A stretch of DNA of 64,000 nucleotides from Burkholderiales bacterium (GTDB lineage Bacteria; Pseudomonadota; Gammaproteobacteria; Burkholderiales; SG8-41), in NCBI GenBank assembly GCA_019749945.1, contig JAIEPF010000024.1:14436-78435 (forward strand). The letters run 5' to 3'. Positions 4,657 through 64,000 of this stretch are shown here, piece after piece. Numbering within the stretch: the stretch's first letter is position 1; each line of letters begins with the position of its first letter. The notes under the pieces are model-generated. The model was not told where the DNA came from. It did no database searches and saw only the letters and a list, made by a program, of their open reading frames with translations. The position numbers were made by a program, and so were the translations under genes.

Positions 4657-5586
4657 ATGTTCAATCCGTTCAAACCGCTGGAACACATCCACGCCGAAGT
4701 CTTCACCTCCATGCCCGGAAAATTCCGCAAAAAAAGCCGCAGCAGCTGGTCGGATCCGAATCGCCAGAATGCGGAAGTGGAATGTTTCCTTGAGGCCCCC
4801 GCTTTCGACCGCGCCGGCAACCTGTTTGTCTGCGACATCCCCTTCGGCCGCATTTTCCGCATCACACCCAAGGGCGACTGGGATCTGGTGATCCAGTATG
4901 ACGGCTGGCCCAACGGCATGAAGTTCCACAAGGACGGCCGCCTGTTCATCTGCGATTACAAGGAAGGCCTGCTCACGCTGGACGTGAAGACCGGCAAGCT
5001 GGAAAACCTGCTGCGCACCGCGTACAGCGAAAGTTTCAAGGGCCTGAACGACCTGCATTTCGCATCGAACGGCGACCTCTATTTCACCGACCAGGGCCAG
5101 ACCGGCATCGCCGACCCGACCGGTCGCGTGTTCCGCCTCAAAGCCAACGGTGAGCTGCGCCGCCTGCTCGAGAACGGCCCCAGCCCCAACGGCATCACGC
5201 TGTCGACCACGGAAAAACATGTCTATGTCGGTATGACGCGTTCGAACTCGGTGTGGCGCCTGCCGCTGATGGCTGACGGCTCGGTGTCCAAAACCGGCCT
5301 CGCGATCCAGCTCTCCGGCGGCGTTGCCGGACCCGACGGCATCGAGATGGACGGTGAAAACGGTTTGCTGGTGTGCCAGCTCGGCGTGGGCATCTGGCGT
5401 TTCGATGCCAACATGCTGCCGACGCACCTCATTTCGTCGAAAAGCCACGACAAGCATCACCACCTCGACAACGTCGCCTTCGGCGGCCCCGACCACAAAC
5501 AGATTTTCATCACCGAAGCGCTGTCCGGCGATGTGCTGACGGCGAAGGTGCCCTTCGCCGGCAAAAAAATGTACGGCCACCAGTAA
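4657..5586 (+). CDS. SMP-30/gluconolactonase/LRE family lactonase
   Basis: 309 aa. Beta-propeller lactonase pattern (EAPAFDRAGNLFVCD, PNGM, NDLHF, PNGI, PDGIEMD). Confidence 0.9.
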   Translation: MFNPFKPLEHIHAEVFTSMPGKFRKKSRSSWSDPNRQNAEVECFLEAPAFDRAGNLFVCDIPFGRIFRITPKGDWDLVIQYDGWPNGMKFHKDGRLFICDYKEGLLTLDVKTGKLENLLRTAYSESFKGLNDLHFASNGDLYFTDQGQTGIADPTGRVFRLKANGELRRLLENGPSPNGITLSTTEKHVYVGMTRSNSVWRLPLMADGSVSKTGLAIQLSGGVAGPDGIEMDGENGLLVCQLGVGIWRFDANMLPTHLISSKSHDKHHHLDNVAFGGPDHKQIFITEALSGDVLTAKVPFAGKKMYGHQ

Positions 5587-5597
5587 GCCGGCTGTGC

Positions 5598-5634
5598 AAA
5601 AAAAACGGCGCACTCCCGGAGTGCGCCGTTTTGT
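5598..5634. terminator. bidirectional rho-independent terminator
   Basis: A-run, 11-bp stem ACGGCGCACTC / GAGTGCGCCGT with a 3-nt loop, then T-run, between convergent genes. Confidence 0.75.
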
Positions 5635-5651
5635 TGTGCCGGGTCTACAGC

Positions 5652-6770
5652 TCAGTGCGCCATCGTCAGGCTGTAGCGCGCAAGCTTCTCTTCGTCGAGA
5701 TCAATGCCCAGCCCGGGGCCTGATGGCAGGTCTATGCTGCCGCGGCTGATATCGAGCCGGGTCGTGGCCACGGTATCGACCACTTTCAGCGGCCCCACGC
5801 ATTCCAGTCCAGCCAGGACATTGCGCGAGGTGGCGGCGAGCATGATCTCCGCCGTCGTGCTGAGATCGAGTCCGAAACCGTGGCCCAGTACAACGGGCAG
5901 ACCTGCCGCCTCCGCGGTGGCCAGCATGCGCGAGGCCTGTAAAAAACCGCCGGCCTGCTTGATGCCGAACTTCACGTAGTCGGCGCAGTCCGCCTTGATC
6001 ACCCGGATCAGGCTTTGGTGATCGCTGATGGATTCGTCGGCCATGACGGGAATGCCGCCTTCCCGCCGAACCCGCGCCAGGCCCGCAAGATCGTCCCTGG
6101 GCGTCGGCTGCTCGAACAATTGCATATCGCAGGATTTGACGGCGCGGCACAAGGCCAGCGCCTGCTCCACGGTGCATTGCATGTTGGCGTCCATGCGCAG
6201 CTTCATGCCTTTGCCGACAGCATCCCGCACCGCCATCACCCGGGCGCTGTCCTTGCCGACATCGTTGCCGACCTTGATTTTCAGCGACTGGAATCCGGCG
6301 TCCTGCCAGCGCTTCGCTTCGGCCGCCGCCGCATCCGGCGGCAGCTCCCCGACCCAGCCGTTGAACAGCAGCCGGTCATGGACAGCGCCGCCGATGTAAT
6401 CGTACAGGGCGATGCCCCCGCGCCGGCAGACGAGCTCAATGCAAGCCAGTTCCACGCCCACCACAGCACCGGGCTGCAATGGCGTCAGCTTCGAGGCGAT
6501 CTCGACGATGCGGTTGACCTGACCCGGATCCTTCCCGATCAGGGCCGGAGCAATACGCTCACGAATGGCTGCGGCCAGCTCCGGACCGGTGTGCGGCGAC
6601 TTGGCGGTGGACGAGGGATCGATGCTGCTGATGCCGATCGCACCGTCAGCAGCCGTGACCCGCACCACAACACATTTGGTGACATTCTTGGAGACACCGC
6701 CGCTGGTAAAGGTGCCCACCAGAGGCATGCCGATGCTGAACACCTCGATTTTGCTGATCGTTGCAGTCAT
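5652..6770 (-). CDS. enolase-superfamily enzyme (mandelate racemase / muconate lactonizing / dipeptide-epimerase-like)
   Basis: 372 aa. KIKVG, LRMDAN, LFEQP and ADES motifs of the MR/MLE fold. Confidence 0.9.
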   Translation of the reverse strand: MTATISKIEVFSIGMPLVGTFTSGGVSKNVTKCVVVRVTAADGAIGISSIDPSSTAKSPHTGPELAAAIRERIAPALIGKDPGQVNRIVEIASKLTPLQPGAVVGVELACIELVCRRGGIALYDYIGGAVHDRLLFNGWVGELPPDAAAAEAKRWQDAGFQSLKIKVGNDVGKDSARVMAVRDAVGKGMKLRMDANMQCTVEQALALCRAVKSCDMQLFEQPTPRDDLAGLARVRREGGIPVMADESISDHQSLIRVIKADCADYVKFGIKQAGGFLQASRMLATAEAAGLPVVLGHGFGLDLSTTAEIMLAATSRNVLAGLECVGPLKVVDTVATTRLDISRGSIDLPSGPGLGIDLDEEKLARYSLTMAH

Positions 6771-6832
6771 TGCGGATCTGTTCCGTTATCTGATTGAAGA
6801 ATAATATGCAAATTCAGCGCGGCCTGAATGCC

Positions 6833-7795
6833 TCAACTGCCGCCAAGCCCGGTCTCCCGGATCAGCTTGCCCCACATCCGGACTTCATTCTGGATATGGA
6901 TACCGAATTCCTGCGGTGTGTTGCCGACCAGTTCGGAACCTTCCTTTTCCATGCGCGCGCGCACTTCCGGGTCGGCGACTACGGCTTTGACCTGCTGGTG
7001 GAGAAACTGCACCACCGGCTGCGGCGTCCTTAGTGGCGCCACGAGGCCGTACCAGTTGCCGACATCGAAGCCCGGCAAGGTCTCCGCAATCGCCGGCAGA
7101 TTGGGAAAAGCCTCCGCACGTTTGAGCGTGGTCACTGCAATACCCCTGATGCGGCCGGAAGTCATGTGCGGACGAGCACCCAGGGGATTCAGGAACGCAA
7201 GCTGCACCTGCCCGGCAGCCAGTTCGACCATGACCTGCCCGCCGCCCTTGTACGGCACATGGACCATGGAAATGCCGGCGCGCTGGGACAGCAGCGTTCC
7301 CGCGAGATGCTGCATGCCGCCGGTGGCCGAAGAACCATAGTTCAGGACGCCGGGCTTGGCCTTTGCCAGCGCGATCAGCTCGGGTATCGATTTCACGGGC
7401 ACGGCATTGGCCACCAGCACCACATAAGGCTGCTGAGTCACCTGCGAAATGGGTGCAAAGTCACGCGCCATGTCGTACGGCAGATCCTTGTGCATCGTAC
7501 TGCTTGCGGTGGTGCTGCCCGAAATCATCGTCAGGGTATATCCGTCGGGCGCAGCCTGCTTGGTGGTCTCCATCGCGATCCGGCCTCCGGCGCCCGGCCG
7601 GTTGTCGACCACAAACTGCTGCCCTGTGCGTTCCGACAGCTTCTGTGCCACGGCCCGGGCCACAAGATCTGTCCCTCCGCCGGCCACAAACGGCACCAGC
7701 ATGCGCACCGGCCTGGCGGGATACTGCTGCGCCGCTGCGGGCAGCGTGCAGGCGAGCCCCGCGCAAAGCATCAGAACCGTATATGCCGTCCTCAA
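6833..7795 (-). CDS. Bug family (TctC-like) tripartite tricarboxylate transporter substrate-binding protein
   Basis: 320 aa. Signal peptide plus YPARPVRMLVPF.AGGGTD and VVDNRPGAGG signature. Confidence 0.9.
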   Translation of the reverse strand: MRTAYTVLMLCAGLACTLPAAAQQYPARPVRMLVPFVAGGGTDLVARAVAQKLSERTGQQFVVDNRPGAGGRIAMETTKQAAPDGYTLTMISGSTTASSTMHKDLPYDMARDFAPISQVTQQPYVVLVANAVPVKSIPELIALAKAKPGVLNYGSSATGGMQHLAGTLLSQRAGISMVHVPYKGGGQVMVELAAGQVQLAFLNPLGARPHMTSGRIRGIAVTTLKRAEAFPNLPAIAETLPGFDVGNWYGLVAPLRTPQPVVQFLHQQVKAVVADPEVRARMEKEGSELVGNTPQEFGIHIQNEVRMWGKLIRETGLGGS

Positions 7796-56158: not shown

Positions 56159-57136
56159 TTACGCCGCCTCAGGGAGACTGCTGTCGGGCAGCCTGCGACG
56201 CAGCATTGAGACGTCCTGCGTTTCGGCAATGGTGCGCGCGTAATCAATGTTCCGGCGCACCACCGAGTAATAGAGATTCTCGCCCTTGAAGTGGCTGTCG
56301 GCGTAACGGTAGACCCCGCCCAAGTCCTGTTCCAGGCGTTTGTGCGCACCCGCAAAAAAACCGGGGGTCTTGAAAATAAGATCCGCGGGAGAGGAGAAAA
56401 TGACTTTCTCCTGTCCTTTGTCATCAACCTGGCGAGCAATGCCGCCGAGCACGAACTCCGGATACAGGCGATCGCGGCATTTCTCCAGATAATAACGATC
56501 CGCCATCTGCGCGAGAATGTCGGCGCTGCCGAGCAGGTTGCCGACCATGCGGTATTGCGGTTCGATCTGGATATTGCCCACCGGCACTTCGTAGCCGGTG
56601 AAATGCACGATGCGTGCAGCAGGATCAGCCAGTTCCTCCAGGCCGACTTCCGGCAGATACCAGGACATGAATTCGGCGCCACGACCGACATGGGTGCGGG
56701 TGTACTCCGCGCCATGTTTCTTTTCGTTGTCGTCCAGGCGGCGCAGATAACCTACATCGTGGAACAGCGCGCTGACGGTGCCCAGTTGAAACAGGCGTTC
56801 ATCCATGATCCGCGTGTTGGTCGCCTGTGCGCAGCCGTCCATCAGCCGCGACATGGCCAGCGTCACCTCGAGGATGTGCTGGATGTCGTGATAGTCGGTT
56901 TCGCAGGCATGAAAGCCGGGAAATTCGCCGCGGTACAGCCGGCCGACATCGGCAAACACCCGCAACAGGCTGGAAGGAAATTCGCGCCGGTAAAGACGTT
57001 CGTAAATTTGCGCGACTTCGAAGGACACTGACACCGGATCCATGGTGTCGACCTGATTCGTGACATCCAGCGTCGAACGGCGGCTATCCGAATAATCCGG
57101 TGATTCTGATGATAATTGCGGATCCATATGCATCAT
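56159..57136 (-). CDS. HD-domain phosphohydrolase-like protein
   Basis: About 325 aa. HDIQH...HDVGY HD motif. The start is ambiguous (ATGs at 57136, 57133 and 57127). Confidence 0.7.
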   Translation of the reverse strand: MMHMDPQLSSESPDYSDSRRSTLDVTNQVDTMDPVSVSFEVAQIYERLYRREFPSSLLRVFADVGRLYRGEFPGFHACETDYHDIQHILEVTLAMSRLMDGCAQATNTRIMDERLFQLGTVSALFHDVGYLRRLDDNEKKHGAEYTRTHVGRGAEFMSWYLPEVGLEELADPAARIVHFTGYEVPVGNIQIEPQYRMVGNLLGSADILAQMADRYYLEKCRDRLYPEFVLGGIARQVDDKGQEKVIFSSPADLIFKTPGFFAGAHKRLEQDLGGVYRYADSHFKGENLYYSVVRRNIDYARTIAETQDVSMLRRRLPDSSLPEAA

Positions 57137-57287
57137 TTTGTTGTATCCGGCTATAGTAACTATAATGCCCCTGCACATGCAATGCCGGCACTTCGGGTAT
57201 GCAGCGCAGGAAACCGGCGGGGAGCGCAGTGTCGGGCCGCCGGCCGGCCCGCGGCAAAACTGTCCAATAAATCACGGTGTTAATGCC

Positions 57288-60200
57288 ATGCACCCGCAAA
57301 CTGTCTACGCCAAGACCTCCAAGGGCGTTCTTGATTTCAAGAACAAAACCATCAAGCTCGATCGCAATGCCGGCAATATTTTTCTTTCGGTGGATGGCAA
57401 ATCGACCTTTGCCGAACTGGTGGCGAAAAGCAAAATCGCCCCCAAGGATGTCGAAGGCATACTGGATGAACTGACCAAGGCGGGTTACGTCAAGGTTTTC
57501 TCGTCCCCGGCTGCTGCTCCTGCCGCAAAACCCGCCGCCCCGGCGACACCTGCAGGGCGCGCCGCCGCCCCGGCCGCACCGGCAGCCGATGACGGCGAGA
57601 TGGATCTCGACTTCACTTCCCCCGAGGCTGTAGCCAAGGTCAATGCCGAGGCAGAAGCCCGTAAAGAGAAGGAAGCGCAGGCCAAGGCCCGCGCGCAGGC
57701 CGCGGCCAAGGCCGCAATGGAGGCCAAAGCGCGGCAGCAGGCTGAAGCCCAGGCCCGCGCCGCCGCCGAAGCCCGCGCCAAAACGGAGGCGGAAGCCAAG
57801 GCCAAGGCTGACGCTGCCGCCCGAGCCGCCGCCGAAGCCCGTGCCAAGGCGGAAGCCGAGTCCAAAGTCGCGGCAGATGCGCAGGCGAAAGCCGCGGCGG
57901 AAATCCGCCTGAAGGCGGCGCAGGAAGCCTCCGCCAGGGCAGAGGCCGAAGCCCGTGCGAGAGCGCAGTCCGAAGCCCGCGCCAAGGCCGAGGCCATTGC
58001 CAAAGCCACCTCGGAAGCCAAGGCCCGCGTCGAAGCCGAAGCGCAGGCCAAGGCCGAAGTCGAAGCCAATGCCCACGCCGCCGCCGAAACCAAGGCGCGC
58101 GAAGCGCTGGAAGCACAGATGAAAGCGATGGCTGAAGCCCTCGCCCGTGCCCAGGATTCCGCGAAACGCGAGGCCGAAGCCCGCGTCCGCATGGAAGCCG
58201 ACATCAAGGCCCGCCTCGAAGCGGAGCGCAAGGCCCTGGAAGAAGCCGAAGCCCGCGCCAAAGCCGCCGAGGAAGCGGTGGCGCAGGCGCGCCAGATGGC
58301 GGAGGAAGCGGCGCGCGCCAAAGCGGCCGCCGAAGCACGGGCGGCAACGCAAGGTTCGGATCCCGAATCCATGGCCAGGGCCACAGCAGCGATGCAGGCG
58401 CTGGAAGAAGCCAAAGCCCGGGCGCGGGCGGAAGCCGAAGCCCGCGTCGCCGCCGAAGCCCGTGCCAAAGCCGAAGCCGAAGCCCGCGCACGCGAGGAAG
58501 AGCAGCGAAGAATCGCCGCCGAAGCCGAGCAAAAAGCGCGCGCTGAAATCGAGGCCAAGGCCAATGCCGAACTGAAAGCACTGCGCGAACAGGCACGGCA
58601 GGCCTCGGCTGAAGCGGAAACCCGCGCTGCGGAAGAAAAACGCGCCCGCGAAGAAATGGAAAACCGGATCGCCGCCGAGCGCCGCGCCCGCGAGGACGCC
58701 GAAGCCAAGGTTGCCGCAGAACGTGAACTGCGCGAAGAGGCCATCCGCAAAGTACAGGCCGAGGCCGAGGCCAAGGCCCGCGCTGAAGTCGAGGCGGTGA
58801 TGGAGGTCGAACGGCGCAAACGCGAGGAAGCCGAGAAAAAAGCCCAGGCCGAGATCGCCGCGCGCACGGTGGCCGAGCGCAAGGCGCGCGAGGAAGCCGA
58901 CCGTCAGCTCGAAATCGCCCATAAAGCGCGGGAGGATGCGGAACGGCTGGCCCGCAGCGCCGGGGCCGGCGAAAGCGCGGAAAGCAAAAAAGCACGGGAG
59001 GATGCGGAATATCGCGCCCAGATGGCCGAAGCCGCGGTGGCAAAAGCCAAGGCGCAGATGGAAGTCGAGCGCCAGGCCCGCGCCCAGGCTGAAGAACGCG
59101 CCAAGGCCGAGGCCGTGGCCCGCGTGGTGCGCGAACAGGAACTGCGCGAAAGCGCTGAAAAAAGCGTCAAGTCGCGGGTGGACGAAGAATTGCGTGCCCG
59201 CGCCCGCGCCGAAATTGAAGCCGACGCGCGTTACCGTGCCGAAGCCGAGGAACGCGCCAAGGCGGCCGCCGCCGACCGCAAGCTGCGCATGGAGTCCGAG
59301 GCGCGTGATGCCGCCTCGTCTTTCCGCTCCGACAAAAAACCGCGCAGCAAGCTGGTGATGGCCGGCATCGGCCTGTTGGTGCTGGTCGCCGGCGGGCTGG
59401 GCGCCCTCCAATTCATGCCGCTCGGCAGCCATGTGCCGGCAGTGCAGGAACTGGTGTCACAGCGGTTCAAGCAGCCGGTGCGCATCAGCAACATGCGCTA
59501 CACGGTTTATCCGGAACAGGTGCTCCGCCTCGAGCAGGTCAGCGTGGGCGGCACGCAGCAGATCAAGGCCGATACCGTCAGCATCCCGATGATGCCGTGG
59601 AGCCTGCTGCTCGGCGCGCGCGAGTTCGACATCATCGCCGCCAACGCCGTCACCATTGAACCCGCGGGCATCGACCTGCTGCCGGTTATGGCAAAAGGCG
59701 CCGAAGGCGCCGCGCTGCAGATCAGCCAGTTGCGCCTGACCAACGTCAAAATCAACGGTCTTGCCATCGATGTACCGCAATTCGAGGCCCTGATCAGCTT
59801 CAGCCGCAGCGGCGCCATGCAGAAAATGCGCCTGAGCGACGGCAAAATGACCGTCAATGCCACGCCGAAGGACAACGGGCTTGCGCTGGCCATCTCGGCC
59901 AGCGAATGGCAGTTGCCGGTGGGACCGGCGCTGAACTTCAGCGACCTTTCAGTCACCGCGCAGGTGGATCAGCGGCAGGCGACGGTGAGCGCGTTCGAAG
60001 GCCGCGTCGGCGGCGGTCGCGTCAAGGGCGCGCTGAAAGCGGCATGGGCCGGCGTCATCAGTGTCGAAGGCGAATTCAATCTTGAAAACGGCCGGCTGCA
60101 GGAACTGATGCCCGCCTACACCCGCGATTTTTCAGCCAACGGCTCGATCAGTGCGAACGGCAGTTATGCGCTGCAGGGGAAAACCCTGAAAACGCTGTTC

Positions 60201-60542
60201 GATGCCAGCGCCGCGGAAGCTTCGTTCACCATCAGCACCGGTGAACTGATGAATATCGACGTGGTGCGTGCGATCCAGGCGCCTTCAGCCAGCGGTACCC
60301 GTGGCGGCAAAACCCGGTTTGACACGCTGAGCGGCGCGCTCAGCATCAGCGGCGGCCGCTACAACTACAAACAGCTGCAACTGAATTCCGGCCCGCTCAA
60401 TGCCAGCGGCGCGATTGCCGTCGGTGACGGCGGAGCGCTTTCGGGCCGCATCAATGCGGAACTCGGCTCCAAGGGCCTGGTGGTGGCCCGCGGCGGCCTG
60501 TCGGTTGCCGGCGCGGTCCGCGATCCGCTGCTGCGGCCCTGA
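57288..60542 (+). CDS. large membrane-anchored protein: N-terminal ~70-aa module, Ala/Pro linker, ~570-aa A/E/R/K-rich coiled coil, one TM helix, C-terminal AsmA-like domain
   Basis: 1084 aa from ATG 57288. The repeat region runs about 57615-59330 (AEARAKAEAE...). The TM helix LVMAGIGLLVLVAGGLGALQF lies at about 59350-59415. The C-terminal G-rich beta-type domain resembles AsmA-family tails (tentative). Confidence 0.8.
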   Translation: MHPQTVYAKTSKGVLDFKNKTIKLDRNAGNIFLSVDGKSTFAELVAKSKIAPKDVEGILDELTKAGYVKVFSSPAAAPAAKPAAPATPAGRAAAPAAPAADDGEMDLDFTSPEAVAKVNAEAEARKEKEAQAKARAQAAAKAAMEAKARQQAEAQARAAAEARAKTEAEAKAKADAAARAAAEARAKAEAESKVAADAQAKAAAEIRLKAAQEASARAEAEARARAQSEARAKAEAIAKATSEAKARVEAEAQAKAEVEANAHAAAETKAREALEAQMKAMAEALARAQDSAKREAEARVRMEADIKARLEAERKALEEAEARAKAAEEAVAQARQMAEEAARAKAAAEARAATQGSDPESMARATAAMQALEEAKARARAEAEARVAAEARAKAEAEARAREEEQRRIAAEAEQKARAEIEAKANAELKALREQARQASAEAETRAAEEKRAREEMENRIAAERRAREDAEAKVAAERELREEAIRKVQAEAEAKARAEVEAVMEVERRKREEAEKKAQAEIAARTVAERKAREEADRQLEIAHKAREDAERLARSAGAGESAESKKAREDAEYRAQMAEAAVAKAKAQMEVERQARAQAEERAKAEAVARVVREQELRESAEKSVKSRVDEELRARARAEIEADARYRAEAEERAKAAAADRKLRMESEARDAASSFRSDKKPRSKLVMAGIGLLVLVAGGLGALQFMPLGSHVPAVQELVSQRFKQPVRISNMRYTVYPEQVLRLEQVSVGGTQQIKADTVSIPMMPWSLLLGAREFDIIAANAVTIEPAGIDLLPVMAKGAEGAALQISQLRLTNVKINGLAIDVPQFEALISFSRSGAMQKMRLSDGKMTVNATPKDNGLALAISASEWQLPVGPALNFSDLSVTAQVDQRQATVSAFEGRVGGGRVKGALKAAWAGVISVEGEFNLENGRLQELMPAYTRDFSANGSISANGSYALQGKTLKTLFDASAAEASFTISTGELMNIDVVRAIQAPSASGTRGGKTRFDTLSGALSISGGRYNYKQLQLNSGPLNASGAIAVGDGGALSGRINAELGSKGLVVARGGLSVAGAVRDPLLRP

Positions 60543-60560
60543 GCCGCTGTCGCCACAAAC

Positions 60561-60593
60561 AAAAGCCCGCGCCGTACAGCGCGGGCTTTTTTG
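60561..60593. terminator. bidirectional rho-independent terminator
   Basis: AAAA-AGCCCGCGC-cgtaca-GCGCGGGCT-TTTTT between convergent genes. Confidence 0.8.
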
Positions 60594-60627
60594 TTGCTGA
60601 ACGAACCGCTGCCGCTTGTCCTGCCGC

Positions 60628-61515
60628 TTATTGCGCCCCGGACTGCGCGGCGCGCAGCGCGGCGATGCGCACATCCAGCGGCGGATGCGACATGAACAGC
60701 GCCATCATTCCGCCGCCGCCCGAAATGCCGAAGGCCGACATCTGCGCGGGCAAGGACGTCTGGTCATGGTTCATTTTCAGGCGCTCCAGCGCGGCGATCA
60801 TCTTCTGCCGGCCGGCCAGTTCGGCGCCGCCGGCATCGGCACGGAATTCTCGCTGGCGGCTGACCCAAGCCACCACCATGCTCGCCAGCACGCCGAGCAC
60901 CATTTGCGCAACAAAGGTGGCGACAAAAAATCCTATGCCCTGACCGCGCTCATTTTTCAGCAGCACGCGGTCGACGAAGAAACCGATCACGCGCGAGAAG
61001 AAGAGCACGAAGGTGTTCACCACGCCCTGCACCAGCGTCAGCGTCACCATGTCGCCGTTGGCGACATGGCTGATTTCATGTCCGAGCACGGCCTCCGCCT
61101 CGTCCTGCGACATGTTGTTGAGCAGGCCGGTGCTGACCGCCACCAGCGCGTCGTTGCGGTTCCAGCCGGTGGCGAAGGCGTTGATGTCCGGGGCGTCGTA
61201 AATCGCCACTTCCGGCATGCCGATGCCGGCGCGTTCCGCCTGACGCTTGACGGTATCCACCAGCCAGCGCTCGGTGGTATTGGCGGGCACTTCGATCACC
61301 CGGGCGCCCGTCGCACTTTTGGCCATCCACTTCGAGATCAGCAGCGAAATGAACGCGCCGCCGAAGCCGAAGAGCGCCGCGAAGACCAGCAGGCCCTGCA
61401 GATTGAGACCGGTCTCGTTTTCCAGCGCAGCGTCGATGCCCAGCAACTGCATGGTCACACTGAGTACCGCGAGTATCGCGAAGTTGGTGACGATCAGCAG
61501 AAAGACACGTTTCAT
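60628..61515 (-). CDS. htpX: zinc metalloprotease HtpX
   Basis: 295 aa. [10 protein letters not shown] (HExxH), four TM segments and typical HtpX N- and C-termini. Confidence 0.95.
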
Positions 61516-61598
61516 GGCTTTTCAAACCCCCGGATGGTTGAACACGCAGCATTAGATAGGGGCGAAGTACACAAGTTCAAGATGCCCCTGGCCCCCGA

Positions 61599-61638
61599 GT
61601 ATTAATTATAAGTAATTGTTTTTATTCATATTTTTATG
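61599..61638 (-). repeat. AT-rich dispersed element, copy E7
   Basis: gtattaattataagtaattgtttttattcatatttttatg (5 G/C in 40 nt). Its rc matches E1 at 34/40. Overlaps the stop of the dtd remnant and lies about 84 nt upstream of the htpX ATG. Confidence 0.8.
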
Positions 61639-61893
61639 GCTGCCAGCGCCTCAACAAACGCCGCGATGCCGCCTCCGCCACCGGCGCGCAACTGCAGCCA
61701 GAATGTCACAGGGCCGTCATTGGTCAGCGTGACCTGCATGTCCGCGCCGAAACGGGCCCGCAGCCACCTGCGCATGGACACGCCGCGCCTGGACCACGAC
61801 ATGCTCAAACAGCTTCCGGCCCGGCTCCGGTGGCGCCCACGTTTACGCCTTCAATCACGACCTGCGCCAGGCTGACCCGTTGCAGCAGGGCGA
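61626..61893 (-). pseudogene. dtd: D-aminoacyl-tRNA deacylase (dtd) remnant with an internal deletion and frameshifts
   Basis: Three frames carry Dtd pieces. They are [26 protein letters not shown] (N-terminus), [19 protein letters not shown], and [22 protein letters not shown] (C-terminal signature). Only about 270 bp are present, whereas about 450 bp are expected. Confidence 0.7.
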
Positions 61894-62739
61894 TCAGCGG
61901 ATTTCCCTGAGCATCGCATTGCCATCGGCAACCGTCGAAGATCCGCGCCCCATCCGGCCCGGCCGGAAATGATCGAGATCATCGTAATAGTCCGGCCGTT
62001 CATTATCGGCACACCAACCGGGCACGCCCAGCACCGGCAACGGTGCAAGTTCATGCGTGTGCCGCAAGGACTGCGGGTCGGCAATCAGCAGCGCCAGGCG
62101 GCGGTCGATTTGCGTCAACCGCTCCGCCGGCGCAAGCGCAAGGAAATCCCGATCCGCACCGAACAACAGTGCGCGTCCGGTAATACCCTTGTAGGGCGCG
62201 AGTGCTTTTTCGCAAAGTGCGTGACCAAAAGGCAGGAATTCCATGCCGGTGATCACCGCGTCGCGGCGCTCCCGGAACAGCGGTTTCCAGCGGAACTCGC
62301 GGATCATGGTCAACAGCCCGATATCCGAAGACAGCACGATGACGCCGCTTTCATCAAACAATGTCAGCGCATCGCGCACCGGTCCACGCCCGCCCGCCTT
62401 GCCTGCGGGCAATGCCGCATGGTGCCGCGCATTCAATGCCGCCTTGGCGCGCGGAAACGTCAGCCAAACCAGTACATTGAACAGGTCGTGCCAGTTGCGC
62501 TCCCGGAATTCCAGTTCACCGCGCGCATAAAGACGCTGCTCGTACGATGCGCCCGCGCCGGCCACCGGCGACACCAGCCGCAGCGGCAGACCGGACGCTG
62601 TGCCGATGCCGGCGCGCGTGATGATTTCCTGCAGCCGCGACAGCGCCGGCCAGTCGTCTCCGGCAAGCTGCCGTGCGGCAGTGCGCAGCACCGCCAGCAG
62701 TGGCGACTGCTCAATAAAATCCGCACTCCATTGATTCAT
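61894..62739 (-). CDS. conserved hypothetical protein (possibly DUF3025-like)
   Basis: 281 aa with good GC3 bias. The family name is recalled from memory only. Confidence 0.55.
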   Translation of the reverse strand: MNQWSADFIEQSPLLAVLRTAARQLAGDDWPALSRLQEIITRAGIGTASGLPLRLVSPVAGAGASYEQRLYARGELEFRERNWHDLFNVLVWLTFPRAKAALNARHHAALPAGKAGGRGPVRDALTLFDESGVIVLSSDIGLLTMIREFRWKPLFRERRDAVITGMEFLPFGHALCEKALAPYKGITGRALLFGADRDFLALAPAERLTQIDRRLALLIADPQSLRHTHELAPLPVLGVPGWCADNERPDYYDDLDHFRPGRMGRGSSTVADGNAMLREIR

Positions 62740-62917
62740 GCGCCCAGTGTACGACGCACCGGCGTTTTAAAGTAAACTTGCGGCTTCTCCGAACCTGGCA
62801 GCCGTTTTTCAGCGGCTTGCCATGAATAAAAAAGTGACTAACGCCGCCATCGGCTCCGAAGCAGCCGGACTGAGCATTGCCGGCCACGTTGCCGATATGC
62901 TGGGATAATGACCAATC

Positions 62918-63695
62918 ATGACCGATAACAACACTTACCGCACCACCGCCAAGGGTCGCGCCGAAGTTGCAGCGAAACCGGGTGTGCTGAAACCGGGTAT
63001 CAAGGGACTGCTGGCCGCGGTCGGTGAGCGGGCCACGGCGAAAAATCTGCGTGACCGGTTTCCGCGTGCCGGCGACATCGGCGCGGCGCTCGAGGCGCTG
63101 ACGAACGAGGGTTATATCGAAATCGCGCCGGCAACGGCTCCGCAATCCAAATCCACGGTCGACGACCTGGAGAGTTTTCTCAGCGAACGCCCGAAAGAGC
63201 CGACGCTGCAGCAGCGCCGCCAGGCCGAGGGTACGATTTCCGGCGCGCGCAAACTGAAAGCCGGTTACCAGATCAATATCCTAAACCGCCCGGGCAAACC
63301 GATCCCGCCGCGCGGCGGCGGCAAACATGCCATTCTGCTTATCGACAGCCACGAAGCGGAAGCGCTGGCCGCCGCACGCGGGCTGATGCAGGGCGGATTC
63401 GACATCCGCGGCGCAGCCAGCCGCAGCGAAATCGCCGCCGCTCTGGCCAAGCCCCCCCCTGCCCGACCTGATCATCATCGATGTCGAACTGCGCGATGCC
63501 GTCGGTCTGGATGTGCTCGGCAAACTGCATGAACACCCGGAATTCAAATCGACGCCGATCATCGTCGTGACTGCCCGCGCCGAACGCGACGACATCGTCG
63601 CGGCACTGGCCTACGGCGCTTCGGGTTACCTCAACAAACCCGTCAAGCCGGATGTCCTGCTGCGCCATGCCAAAGACGCGCTCGGCCTGCCCTGA
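62918..63695 (+). pseudogene. response regulator (N-terminal ~70-aa module + receiver domain) frameshifted at a C8 tract
   Basis: Frame 1 gives ...KHAILLIDSHEAEALAAARGLMQGGFDIRGAASRSEIAAALAKPP. Frame +1 continues LPDLIIIDVELRDAVGLDVLGKLHEHPEFKSTPIIVVTARAERDDIVAALAYGASGYLNKPV. The total length of 778 nt equals 3n+1. Confidence 0.75.
63452..63459. repeat. poly-C homopolymer (C8) at the frameshift site
   Basis: The block gcccccccct was counted directly. Deleting one C restores a single 258-aa ORF. Confidence 0.9.
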
Positions 63696-63712: not shown

Positions 63713-64000
63713 TCATTCGCCCAGCAACTGCTGGATCAGCGGCAACATCAATTCGGCAGCCGCACGCCCCTCTTTGACCGACTCCGCGGCACGGTGGTAA
63801 TCAAGGGCCCCCACGTTTCCCAGCCGGGGCGCAATCACCACATCGGCGGGTTCACCGGCAAGCCGGCTGCGGGTGATGCGCACCTGCATGATGCTGATGC
63901 TTTCCGCGACCACCTCGATCATGTTCGGCTGGCGATCGCTGGGTCGGCCGCGCACATGACGACCGGCGATGCCTGAACCAAGATCGACGCCGATGACAAA
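63713..64000 (-). CDS. patatin-like phospholipase, C-terminal part (gene continues beyond window end)
   Basis: The minus-strand frame is open to the window edge (...FVIGVDLGSGIAGRHVRGRPSD...VVIAPRLGNVGALDYHRAAESVKEGRAAAE...). This resembles the RssA-type C-terminus and the assignment is tentative. Confidence 0.55.
   Translation of the reverse strand, partial: FVIGVDLGSGIAGRHVRGRPSDRQPNMIEVVAESISIMQVRITRSRLAGEPADVVIAPRLGNVGALDYHRAAESVKEGRAAAELMLPLIQQLLGE

Follow-up and report, generated by a model that had tools for sequence, protein, structure and literature searches.

A winged-helix-like N-terminal domain and a tethered acidic motif shared by an AsmA-like membrane protein and a response regulator: a candidate docking tag in a Burkholderiales bacterium

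Why do two neighbouring genes of a Burkholderiales bacterium, one encoding a 1084-residue protein with a long coiled coil and an AsmA-like domain (the large protein), and the other a frame-broken response regulator (the regulator), begin with recognizably the same stretch of about 70 residues? Both genes lie on the plus strand of the DNA analysed here (the window: 64 kb, ~62% G+C; contig JAIEPF010000024.1 of assembly GCA_019749945.1), at the positions assigned to them by a first-pass annotation of the letters: the large gene at 57288-60542, and the regulator at 62918-63532 for its first open reading frame (ORF), with a continuation in another frame to 63695. The first-pass annotation had regarded the common N-terminus as a winged-helix-like module private to the two genes, and had taken it as a hint of a linked signalling and envelope system. 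Our overall best explanation, held with confidence evenly poised between acceptance and doubt, is that a paralogous bipartite unit, consisting of the domain and a tethered acidic peptide, acts as a docking "address tag". The N-terminus of the large protein is MHPQTVYAK, encoded from the ATG at 57288; the mechanically called ORF opens at a farther-upstream TTG, and the homologs all begin with MHPQT.

The earlier alignment of the two N-termini was reproduced exactly by a global BLOSUM62 alignment of residues 1–70 of the large protein with residues 1–69 of the regulator, with 17 identities and a single 1-residue gap from Met1. Its score of 47 was not attained in any of 5000 shuffles (−18 ± 9.7; z = 6.7). 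BLASTP of the same pair aligned the last 28 residues alone (E 4e-4), as might be expected if the similarity arose by chance or from composition. Because this pairwise match was weak, profiles of the two families were compared. With 8 and 5 sequences, hhalign gave a probability of 84.9% (E 6.4e-6). Scanning the GTDB species genomes with the module of the large protein gave 118 loci, 80 of them fetched, from metagenome-assembled genomes (MAGs) of uncultured Burkholderiales/Betaproteobacteria; with 79 large-protein modules and 37 regulator modules from these related loci, the probability rose to 98.4% (E 5.5e-15) over 72 columns from residue 1. Controls in which the columns of one alignment were reversed or shuffled gave at most 2.9% probability, and scores of at most 16 as compared with 73.8 for the real pair. 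In addition, matches across the two families were obtained in divergent loci: the hidden Markov model (HMM) of the large-protein modules matched a regulator (L034) at 8e-7, the regulator HMM matched a large protein (L051) at 2.4e-5, and a broader regulator HMM matched a distant large protein (L081) at 2e-17. The profile match, the failure of the controls, and the reciprocal HMM matches therefore establish homology, and a chance or compositional resemblance is vanishingly improbable. The two N-termini are almost certainly paralogous, with the domain anatomy described below, as judged by sequence comparison.

The module occupies residues 1–72 of the large protein (57288..57503, plus strand) and residues 1–72 of the regulator (62918..63133, plus strand), the former being delimited by AlphaFold2, Foldseek, and its profile match to the latter, and the latter by hhalign and the pairwise alignment. 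AlphaFold2 modeled it with a predicted local distance difference test (pLDDT) score of 92–96 from a 44-sequence alignment, and 80–86 from 12 sequences, as a strand (residues 6–9) followed by the helices 11–18, 26–34, 41–48, and 52–64, and a last strand (68–72). The top Foldseek matches of this model were all winged-helix domains (root-mean-squared deviation, 1.9–2.3 Å over 71–72 columns; probability, 1.0), including those of Nprl2/Nprl3 of GATOR1/SEA, RPC39, Lrp/AsnC, and MarR, several of which bind protein and not DNA. The winged-helix-like look that had been noticed in the letters is thus borne out by the models, which support a fold with a three-helix winged helix-turn-helix (wHTH) core and a small sheet. 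A sequence-profile search of PDB gave weak matches throughout, mostly to wHTH proteins, and placed positions 22–73 on the wHTH core of ZitR/AdcR; in this register, the predicted helix 52–65 takes the position of the recognition helix and carries a net negative charge (large protein, −2; regulator, −3). The canonical β-hairpin wing is absent from the AlphaFold2 model, in which the last strand is followed by a disordered linker and the N-terminal strand stands in the place of the wing. Residues Thr10, Lys12, Gly13, and Glu16, together with the core residues Leu24, Leu44, Leu62, and Gly66, are conserved in all types of the family, and T10-x-K12-G13-x-x-E16, located at the strand-to-helix junction near the N-terminus, constitutes the most conserved surface motif. 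None of the helix-turn-helix (HTH) models of Pfam reached its gathering threshold with the module (HTH_24, 14.1 vs 21.9; HTH_34, 13.0–13.5 vs 27; MarR_2, 12.1 vs 27; Rrf2, 12.0 vs 30). PqqD also stayed below threshold on the module of the large protein (16.7 vs 23.4 bits; E 0.0097), and did not match that of the regulator.

As had been claimed, an Ala/Pro-rich linker follows the module in both proteins, long in the large protein (residues 73–100, 57504..57587, plus strand; pLDDT ~44) and short in the regulator, and its length differs among homologs. The module had been delimited at ~70 residues; the homology does start from Met1, and the common part extends beyond this length. In the large protein, the linker leads to the acidic motif DDGEMDLDFT (residues 101–110, 57588..57617, plus strand), the core of which, DLDFT (106–110), is conserved in the family. 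Among the 89 family members with 130 residues or more, 58 carry a DLDFT-like motif, at a median position of 93, as compared with 3.5% in shuffles; its consensus, [DE]-[LF]-D-F-[TA], also occurs in divergent regulators and in paralogs of a PAS-containing type. The divergent regulator orthologs carry DDLDFAAYMNRP or NDLDFTRFINRP at this position after a short linker, and the regulator of the window has the degenerate counterpart DDLESFL (residues 82–88, 63161..63181, plus strand). The shared unit, as read from these alignments, is therefore longer than 70 residues and comprises the predicted winged-helix-like domain (~72 residues), the Ala/Pro linker, and the acidic DLDF(T/A) motif.

In the large protein, this unit is mounted on an extended α-helical stalk rich in Ala, Glu, Arg, and Lys (residues 112–670, 57621..59297, plus strand), which AlphaFold2 divides into helices 112–227, 254–354, 359–468, 479–557, and 564–670. 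The composition of the stalk (A 35%, E 19%, R 13%, K 8.5%) is TolA-like, with a weak match to TIGR02794. It is followed by a basic KKPRSK sequence and a single transmembrane (TM) helix (residues 690–709, 59355..59414, plus strand), which AlphaFold2 and the sequence indicate to have its N-terminal side in the cytoplasm. Since the TM helix comes directly after KKPRSK and the protein has no signal peptide, the ~689 N-terminal residues should be cytoplasmic, and residues 713–1084 periplasmic. A single hydrophobic stretch in a corresponding position is present in each of the 34 long homologs. The first-pass annotation had described a membrane-spanning coiled coil: the coil and the membrane anchor are indeed present, whereas the coil itself does not cross the membrane but lies on the cytoplasmic side, ahead of the anchor. 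Among homologs, the TM helix starts anywhere from residue 174 to 727, so that the spacer before it differs by several hundred residues. Several imperfect 24-nt (8-codon) tandem repeats are seen in the coil-coding region (57924-58485 of the window), and these repeats together with the length variation are consistent with growth of the stalk via repeat expansion.

The C-terminal part of the large protein (residues 713–1084, 59424..60539, plus strand) is a predicted β-rich domain with a pLDDT of 91–98. When the C-terminal 402 residues were scanned alone, the AsmA model PF05170 was matched with 33.0 bits (cut-off, 29.8; E 3.9e-8), in agreement with the AsmA-like periplasmic domain proposed earlier; no match was obtained with the full-length protein, whose low-complexity coil probably suppresses the score. 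Among ten diverse orthologous C-terminal domains, eight matched PF05170, seven of them over the threshold and one just under it. Assignment of the periplasmic domain to the AsmA family is supported by these profile matches. Of the 607 positions of the model, only ~5–116 and ~442–605 were matched by the domain and its orthologs, and the domain can therefore be viewed as a shortened "mini-AsmA", as if the middle of AsmA were deleted. A fold search of PDB with the C-terminal domain gave no match at E ≤ 0.001, whether to the open β-taco grooves of the solved TamB and YhdP fragments or to any other structure, the best being ApoB100 (E 0.053; probability, 0.25).

In the regulator, the degenerate motif is followed by a 47-residue segment, PKEPTLQQR...KAGYQISILNRPGKPI.PR (residues 89–135, 63182..63322, plus strand), which is conserved in 36 orthologs. 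Placed between the DLDF-like motif and the receiver, this segment is a feature of the regulator type only; the large protein contains nothing equivalent, and the segment matches no known family. The receiver (REC) domain (PF00072; 63332..63692, plus strand) is interrupted by a +1 frameshift at a run of eight C residues (63452..63459, plus strand), as is evident from the sequence and the orthologs, in accordance with the earlier description of a broken regulator. Removal of one C from the run restores ...AKPPLPDLIIIDVELRD..., and the frame-corrected protein matches PF00072 with 68.8 bits (E 5.6e-19), as compared with E 1.2e-9 for the second ORF alone. The receiver motifs DLIIIDV, IIVVTA, and YLNKP, carrying the phospho-acceptor Asp, the conserved Thr, and the Lys, respectively, are readable in the sequence; the N-terminal acidic pair is D-S and not D-D. 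Complete orthologs are ~254–278 residues long and almost all are intact, having at the C8 site, for example, AAACCGCCCCTGCCC, with mixed Pro codons and no long C run. One other ortholog is broken, by an in-frame stop right after its DLDFT motif (L033 13585-14634). The identical broken ORF occurs on five contigs from assemblies of separate sequencing runs, and the three contigs fetched (Logan) all carry C8; an exact-sequence search of a 15-billion-protein collection for intact alleles (C7, or C9 giving PPP) found none. A random error of assembly is a less likely origin of the frameshift than a genuine mutation carried by this population, and the frameshift may represent either a fixed pseudogene or a slipped-strand switch.

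The idea that the module is private to the two genes did not survive a broader search. An exhaustive hmmsearch of 1.84 billion cluster representatives (50% identity), with a profile of 16 sequences of both types, detected at least 1,472 clusters with a cut-off of E ≤ 1e-3, of which 154 also passed E ≤ 1e-10, in at least six architectures; the match begins at residues 1–20 almost always, and one of the listed matches (P0138) is spurious. The commonest plan is that of the large protein, shared by 34 of the 42 listed matches of at least 250 residues: the module, usually DLDFT, a helical spacer, one hydrophobic helix, and a C-terminal domain of ~400 residues, the last matching the C-terminal HMM of the large protein at E 1e-42 to 1e-178 in these 34 homologs. 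The same search returned soluble coiled-coil proteins (P0048, P0080, and P0114), a regulator (P0034; receiver E 3.8e-21), proteins of ~155 residues with a small helical domain (P0134, P0145, P0149, P0150, and P0157), and a 167-residue protein with two tandem copies of the module and without the DLDF motif (P0159). Moreover, in two of the GTDB loci, a protein with the module, TLDFT, a coiled coil, and a PAS domain (E 1.9e-12) is encoded upstream of the large gene (L043 3822-5063 and L050 5749-6909); the regulator type did not turn up in these loci. In the small ~155-residue members and in the window-type regulator, the domain is kept and the DLDF motif is lost or degraded.

No model in Pfam-A or NCBIfam covers the module, and family proteins that bear a name in their sources are called hypothetical. 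The family is seen in uncultured Betaproteobacteria, with at least one member, a small protein, from a MAG of Competibacteraceae (Gammaproteobacterium). Two MAGs, SMAG_U9493 and SMAG_U10135, have two paralogs of the large protein each (L042/L046 and L047/L056), of which the second copy lies outside the conserved neighbourhood described below. A tblastn search of 72,556 plasmids with the large protein gave no match, and literature searches on cytoplasmic coiled coils or winged helices in AsmA-like proteins, and on DUF3025, yielded nothing on this family. Word-indexed protein searches returned short fragments from contig ends almost exclusively, without the full-length proteins, and the architectures were taken instead from the GTDB loci and the exhaustive HMM search; the low-complexity coil, by breaking assemblies and lowering HMMER scores, may explain such fragment-only results. 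Altogether, the module defines a large uncurated family within the winged-helix fold, in which the large protein is an unusual AsmA-like variant with a long cytoplasmic extension. A model of this domain family would improve the annotation of many betaproteobacterial "hypothetical proteins".

What, then, could such a unit do at the free end of proteins that otherwise differ so widely? Of the roles considered, the most likely is that of a protein-docking tag rather than a DNA reader, because an acidic helix occupies the recognition position and there is no canonical wing, because the closest structures include protein-binding winged helices, because the domain is almost always located at a free N-terminus on a flexible tether, and because docking modules typically combine a domain with a short linear motif on a tether. 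The domain and the tethered DLDF peptide would then bring the downstream parts to a common cytoplasmic partner, or alternatively bring members of the family together. On the large protein, the tag would form the outer end of the long cytoplasmic stalk, whose base is anchored in the inner membrane, and could couple a cytoplasmic partner to the AsmA-like groove in the periplasm, presumably a lipid-handling one; on the regulator, it would bring a phosphorylatable receiver to this partner as well. Taken alone, this docking function is proposed tentatively, with confidence a little short of even, and several observations weigh against it. The E-values of the Foldseek matches are only 0.02–0.4. The module as a whole is basic (large protein, +4; regulator, +3), mainly through residues 1–34, and may bind nucleic acid or membrane via a non-canonical face. 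AlphaFold left the DLDF motif undocked on the domain in both models, with a pLDDT of ~44 for linker and motif. The neighbourhoods of the distant family members and the small ~155-residue proteins showed no recurring signalling or envelope partner. A set of architectures comprising receiver, PAS, TM-plus-periplasmic, and stand-alone forms would also be expected of a DNA-binding output domain. Finally, the regulator gene lies close to the large gene in a single clade, where this may reflect nothing more than an inherited gene order.

Several of these points suit the view that the module is a wHTH output domain binding DNA, in which case the large protein would be a membrane-tethered regulator like ToxR/CadC with an AsmA-like sensor, and the regulator, the PAS protein, and the small proteins soluble regulators of like DNA sites. 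The winged-helix fold, the weak sequence matches to MarR, HxlR, and Lrp regulators, the net charge of the module, the ToxR-like order of wHTH, linker, one TM helix, and periplasmic domain, and a range of partners typical of output domains all speak for this view. It is nevertheless unlikely, given the acidic helix at the recognition position, the N-terminal strand in place of the β-hairpin wing, the failure of every curated HTH model to reach threshold, the absence of a Trans_reg_C match at E ≤ 10, a TolA-like stalk varying by hundreds of residues, which is no ToxR-like feature, and best structural matches that include winged helices not binding DNA. It is also conceivable that the winged-helix domain binds the acidic DLDF peptide itself, within one protein for auto-inhibition, or between proteins to form head-to-tail homo- or hetero-oligomers, for example of the large protein with the regulator. 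Domain and motif are nearly always joined by a flexible tether, a conserved basic N-terminal patch (Lys9, Lys12, Lys20, Lys23, and Arg26) would face a motif with a net charge of ~−5, and some genomes encode several family members; however, neither model shows docking of the motif, and the ~155-residue members and the window-type regulator keep the domain with the motif lost or degraded, so that we consider this arrangement quite improbable.

A further view accepts an old shared domain and holds that the two genes are otherwise independent, their proximity being gene order inherited in one Burkholderiales clade. That they form a linked system in the sense of one transcription unit is contradicted by the layout: a bidirectional intrinsic terminator, the convergent htpX, and the minus-strand DUF3025 gene lie between them, and the two genes are therefore not co-transcribed. 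Measured from start to start, the regulator gene follows the large gene by 5.6–9.8 kb on the same strand, with the spacing varying because unrelated genes are inserted, and the whole block from a quinone oxidoreductase (QOR) gene through the HD-domain gene, the large gene, and htpX to DUF3025, the regulator, and the patatin gene is syntenic. Co-occurrence of the two architectures holds in 36 related loci, namely every one of the 24 loci that extend at least 6.8 kb downstream and have a module sharing at least 74% identity with that of the window, and 12 more distant ones (module 49–62% identical). It does not hold farther away: 15 distant loci (≤ 56% identical) with 10 kb of downstream sequence have no regulator, several of them extending past DUF3025 without a receiver gene, and none was within reach in six still more distant contexts of the large protein (L081–L086), two of which share a pntAB...amiC neighbourhood. 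In a neighbour-joining tree, the 48 modules of the regulator type group together as one clade, well separated from every large-protein module, which argues for an old paralog of single origin and against a recent copy of the neighbour; the regulator type arose once, within one uncultured Burkholderiales clade, and has a fixed place beside the DUF3025 and patatin genes. The regulator of the window is broken with no sign of compensation. On the other side, the regulator type is found only in loci with the large gene (36 of 36, in a search seeded on the large gene), and the fact that both proteins have kept this tag together with the DLDF motif suggests that they have a binding activity in common. 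Independence of the two genes is accordingly a serious alternative, though one that we regard as somewhat doubtful.

Returning to the docking-tag reading, a bolder form of it can be stated. Current work on AsmA-like proteins views them as bridges that carry phospholipid between the two membranes, and we know of no cytoplasmic regulation of them. The winged-helix-like domain and the DLDF motif might be the address tag of a cytoplasmic hub, not recognized before, that joins REC and PAS proteins to the AsmA-like protein of the inner membrane, in which case outer-membrane lipid homeostasis would be controlled from the cytoplasm, through competition or co-assembly that depends on phosphorylation and takes place at the stalk tip; we regard this as a speculative scheme with a low chance of being correct. 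Its interest lies in an AsmA-like subfamily carrying a cytoplasmic extension (~690 residues in the protein of the window) that ends in a confidently folded conserved domain, the same end domain being fused to a receiver and to PAS, so that one domain and one peptide motif may serve as a handle on cytoplasmic input.

In comparison with known systems, the large protein resembles AsmA, YhdP, TamB, YdbH, and GspN in having a single TM anchor, with its N-terminal side in the cytoplasm, directly before a periplasmic β-rich domain that passes the AsmA threshold; weak matches to the YhdP, TamB, and GspN models were also obtained. In contrast, canonical AsmA-like proteins lack the ~690 cytoplasmic residues (winged helix, DLDF, and stalk) that precede the anchor here, and the periplasmic part of the large protein comprises only ~380 residues without a significant match to a solved structure. 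E. coli AsmA has 617 residues. The order of an N-terminal cytoplasmic HTH-type domain, a linker, one TM helix, and a periplasmic domain is shared with RodZ and ToxR/CadC, and the HTH of RodZ binds a protein (MreB) and not DNA; the large protein differs from both in having no XRE or Trans_reg_C match, a far longer stalk, and an AsmA-like periplasmic domain. The long helical region resembles TolA domain II in its Ala/Glu/Lys/Arg-rich composition, whereas that of TolA is periplasmic and C-terminal to the TM helix, and that of the large protein cytoplasmic and N-terminal to it.

The module itself shares its core topology with MarR/HxlR/Lrp regulators and with Nprl2/Nprl3 and RPC39, at the ~2 Å deviation given above, and is set apart from them by its sub-threshold scores, the acidic "recognition" helix, the N-terminal strand paired with the last strand, and an extra N-terminal helix bearing the TxKGxxE signature. 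PqqD and related recognition elements of ribosomally synthesized and post-translationally modified peptides are winged-helix-like peptide binders, and PqqD gives the module of the large protein its best single Pfam match, which spans almost the entire model; the score below threshold, the unmatched module of the regulator, and a different predicted order of strands distinguish the two. The domain order of the regulator is that of PatA-type PATAN-REC and CheV-type CheW-REC proteins, in which the N-terminal domain targets the receiver to a partner or a cellular location, a parallel that serves as a lead only; the N-terminal domain of the regulator is of a different fold family, and neither PATAN/DUF4388 (E ≤ 10) nor CheW was matched in it.

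As for the neighbouring genes, the conserved order is QOR (forward), HD (reverse), large gene (forward), htpX (reverse), a variable insert, DUF3025 (reverse), regulator (forward), and patatin (reverse); the divergent HD gene and the nearby htpX and patatin genes had already been recognized in the first-pass annotation. The HD gene (56159..57178, minus strand) encodes an HD-domain metalloprotein of the Npun_R2479-like type (NCBIfam NF045583, E 1.2e-8) and is separated from the large gene by 109 bp; inspection by eye for the HD-GYP (cyclic di-GMP) motifs revealed none. Most of the 80 related loci have the two genes side by side in divergent orientation, and an HD ortholog (55% identical, 5985-6935) still lies near the large gene in L084, a rearranged locus, with fragments of a quinone-oxidoreductase pseudogene between them (5208-5867) marking the block rearrangement. 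The HD gene is a more consistent neighbour of the large gene than the regulator is.

Downstream of the large gene, the terminator (60561..60590, acting in both directions) has a perfect 12-bp stem flanked by A/T runs. An Rfam scan of 55.5–64 kb yielded nothing beyond sub-threshold "Leu/Thr leader" matches at 60524-60623, which correspond to this hairpin. The convergent htpX gene (60628..61515, minus strand; M48 protease, PF01435, E 1.5e-38) remains next to the large gene in the majority of related loci, and also in L081, a distant one. The DUF3025 gene (61894..62739, minus strand; PF11227, E 1.1e-68) is divergent from the regulator, which it precedes in 34 of the 36 loci, being directly adjacent in close relatives; this association holds despite extra genes between htpX and DUF3025. 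The patatin-like gene (63713..64000, minus strand) is convergent with the regulator and truncated by the end of the window; on L088, which carries an identical regulator allele, the gene at this position encodes a 268-residue Patatin protein (PF01734), and the same holds on L087. Patatin-like genes recur near module genes of several kinds, namely the regulator, a distant large protein (L081 7217-8437), and a small ~160-residue member (further patatin-like genes at L087 1664-2470 and L093 9523-10692), possibly as part of a shared betaproteobacterial gene order.

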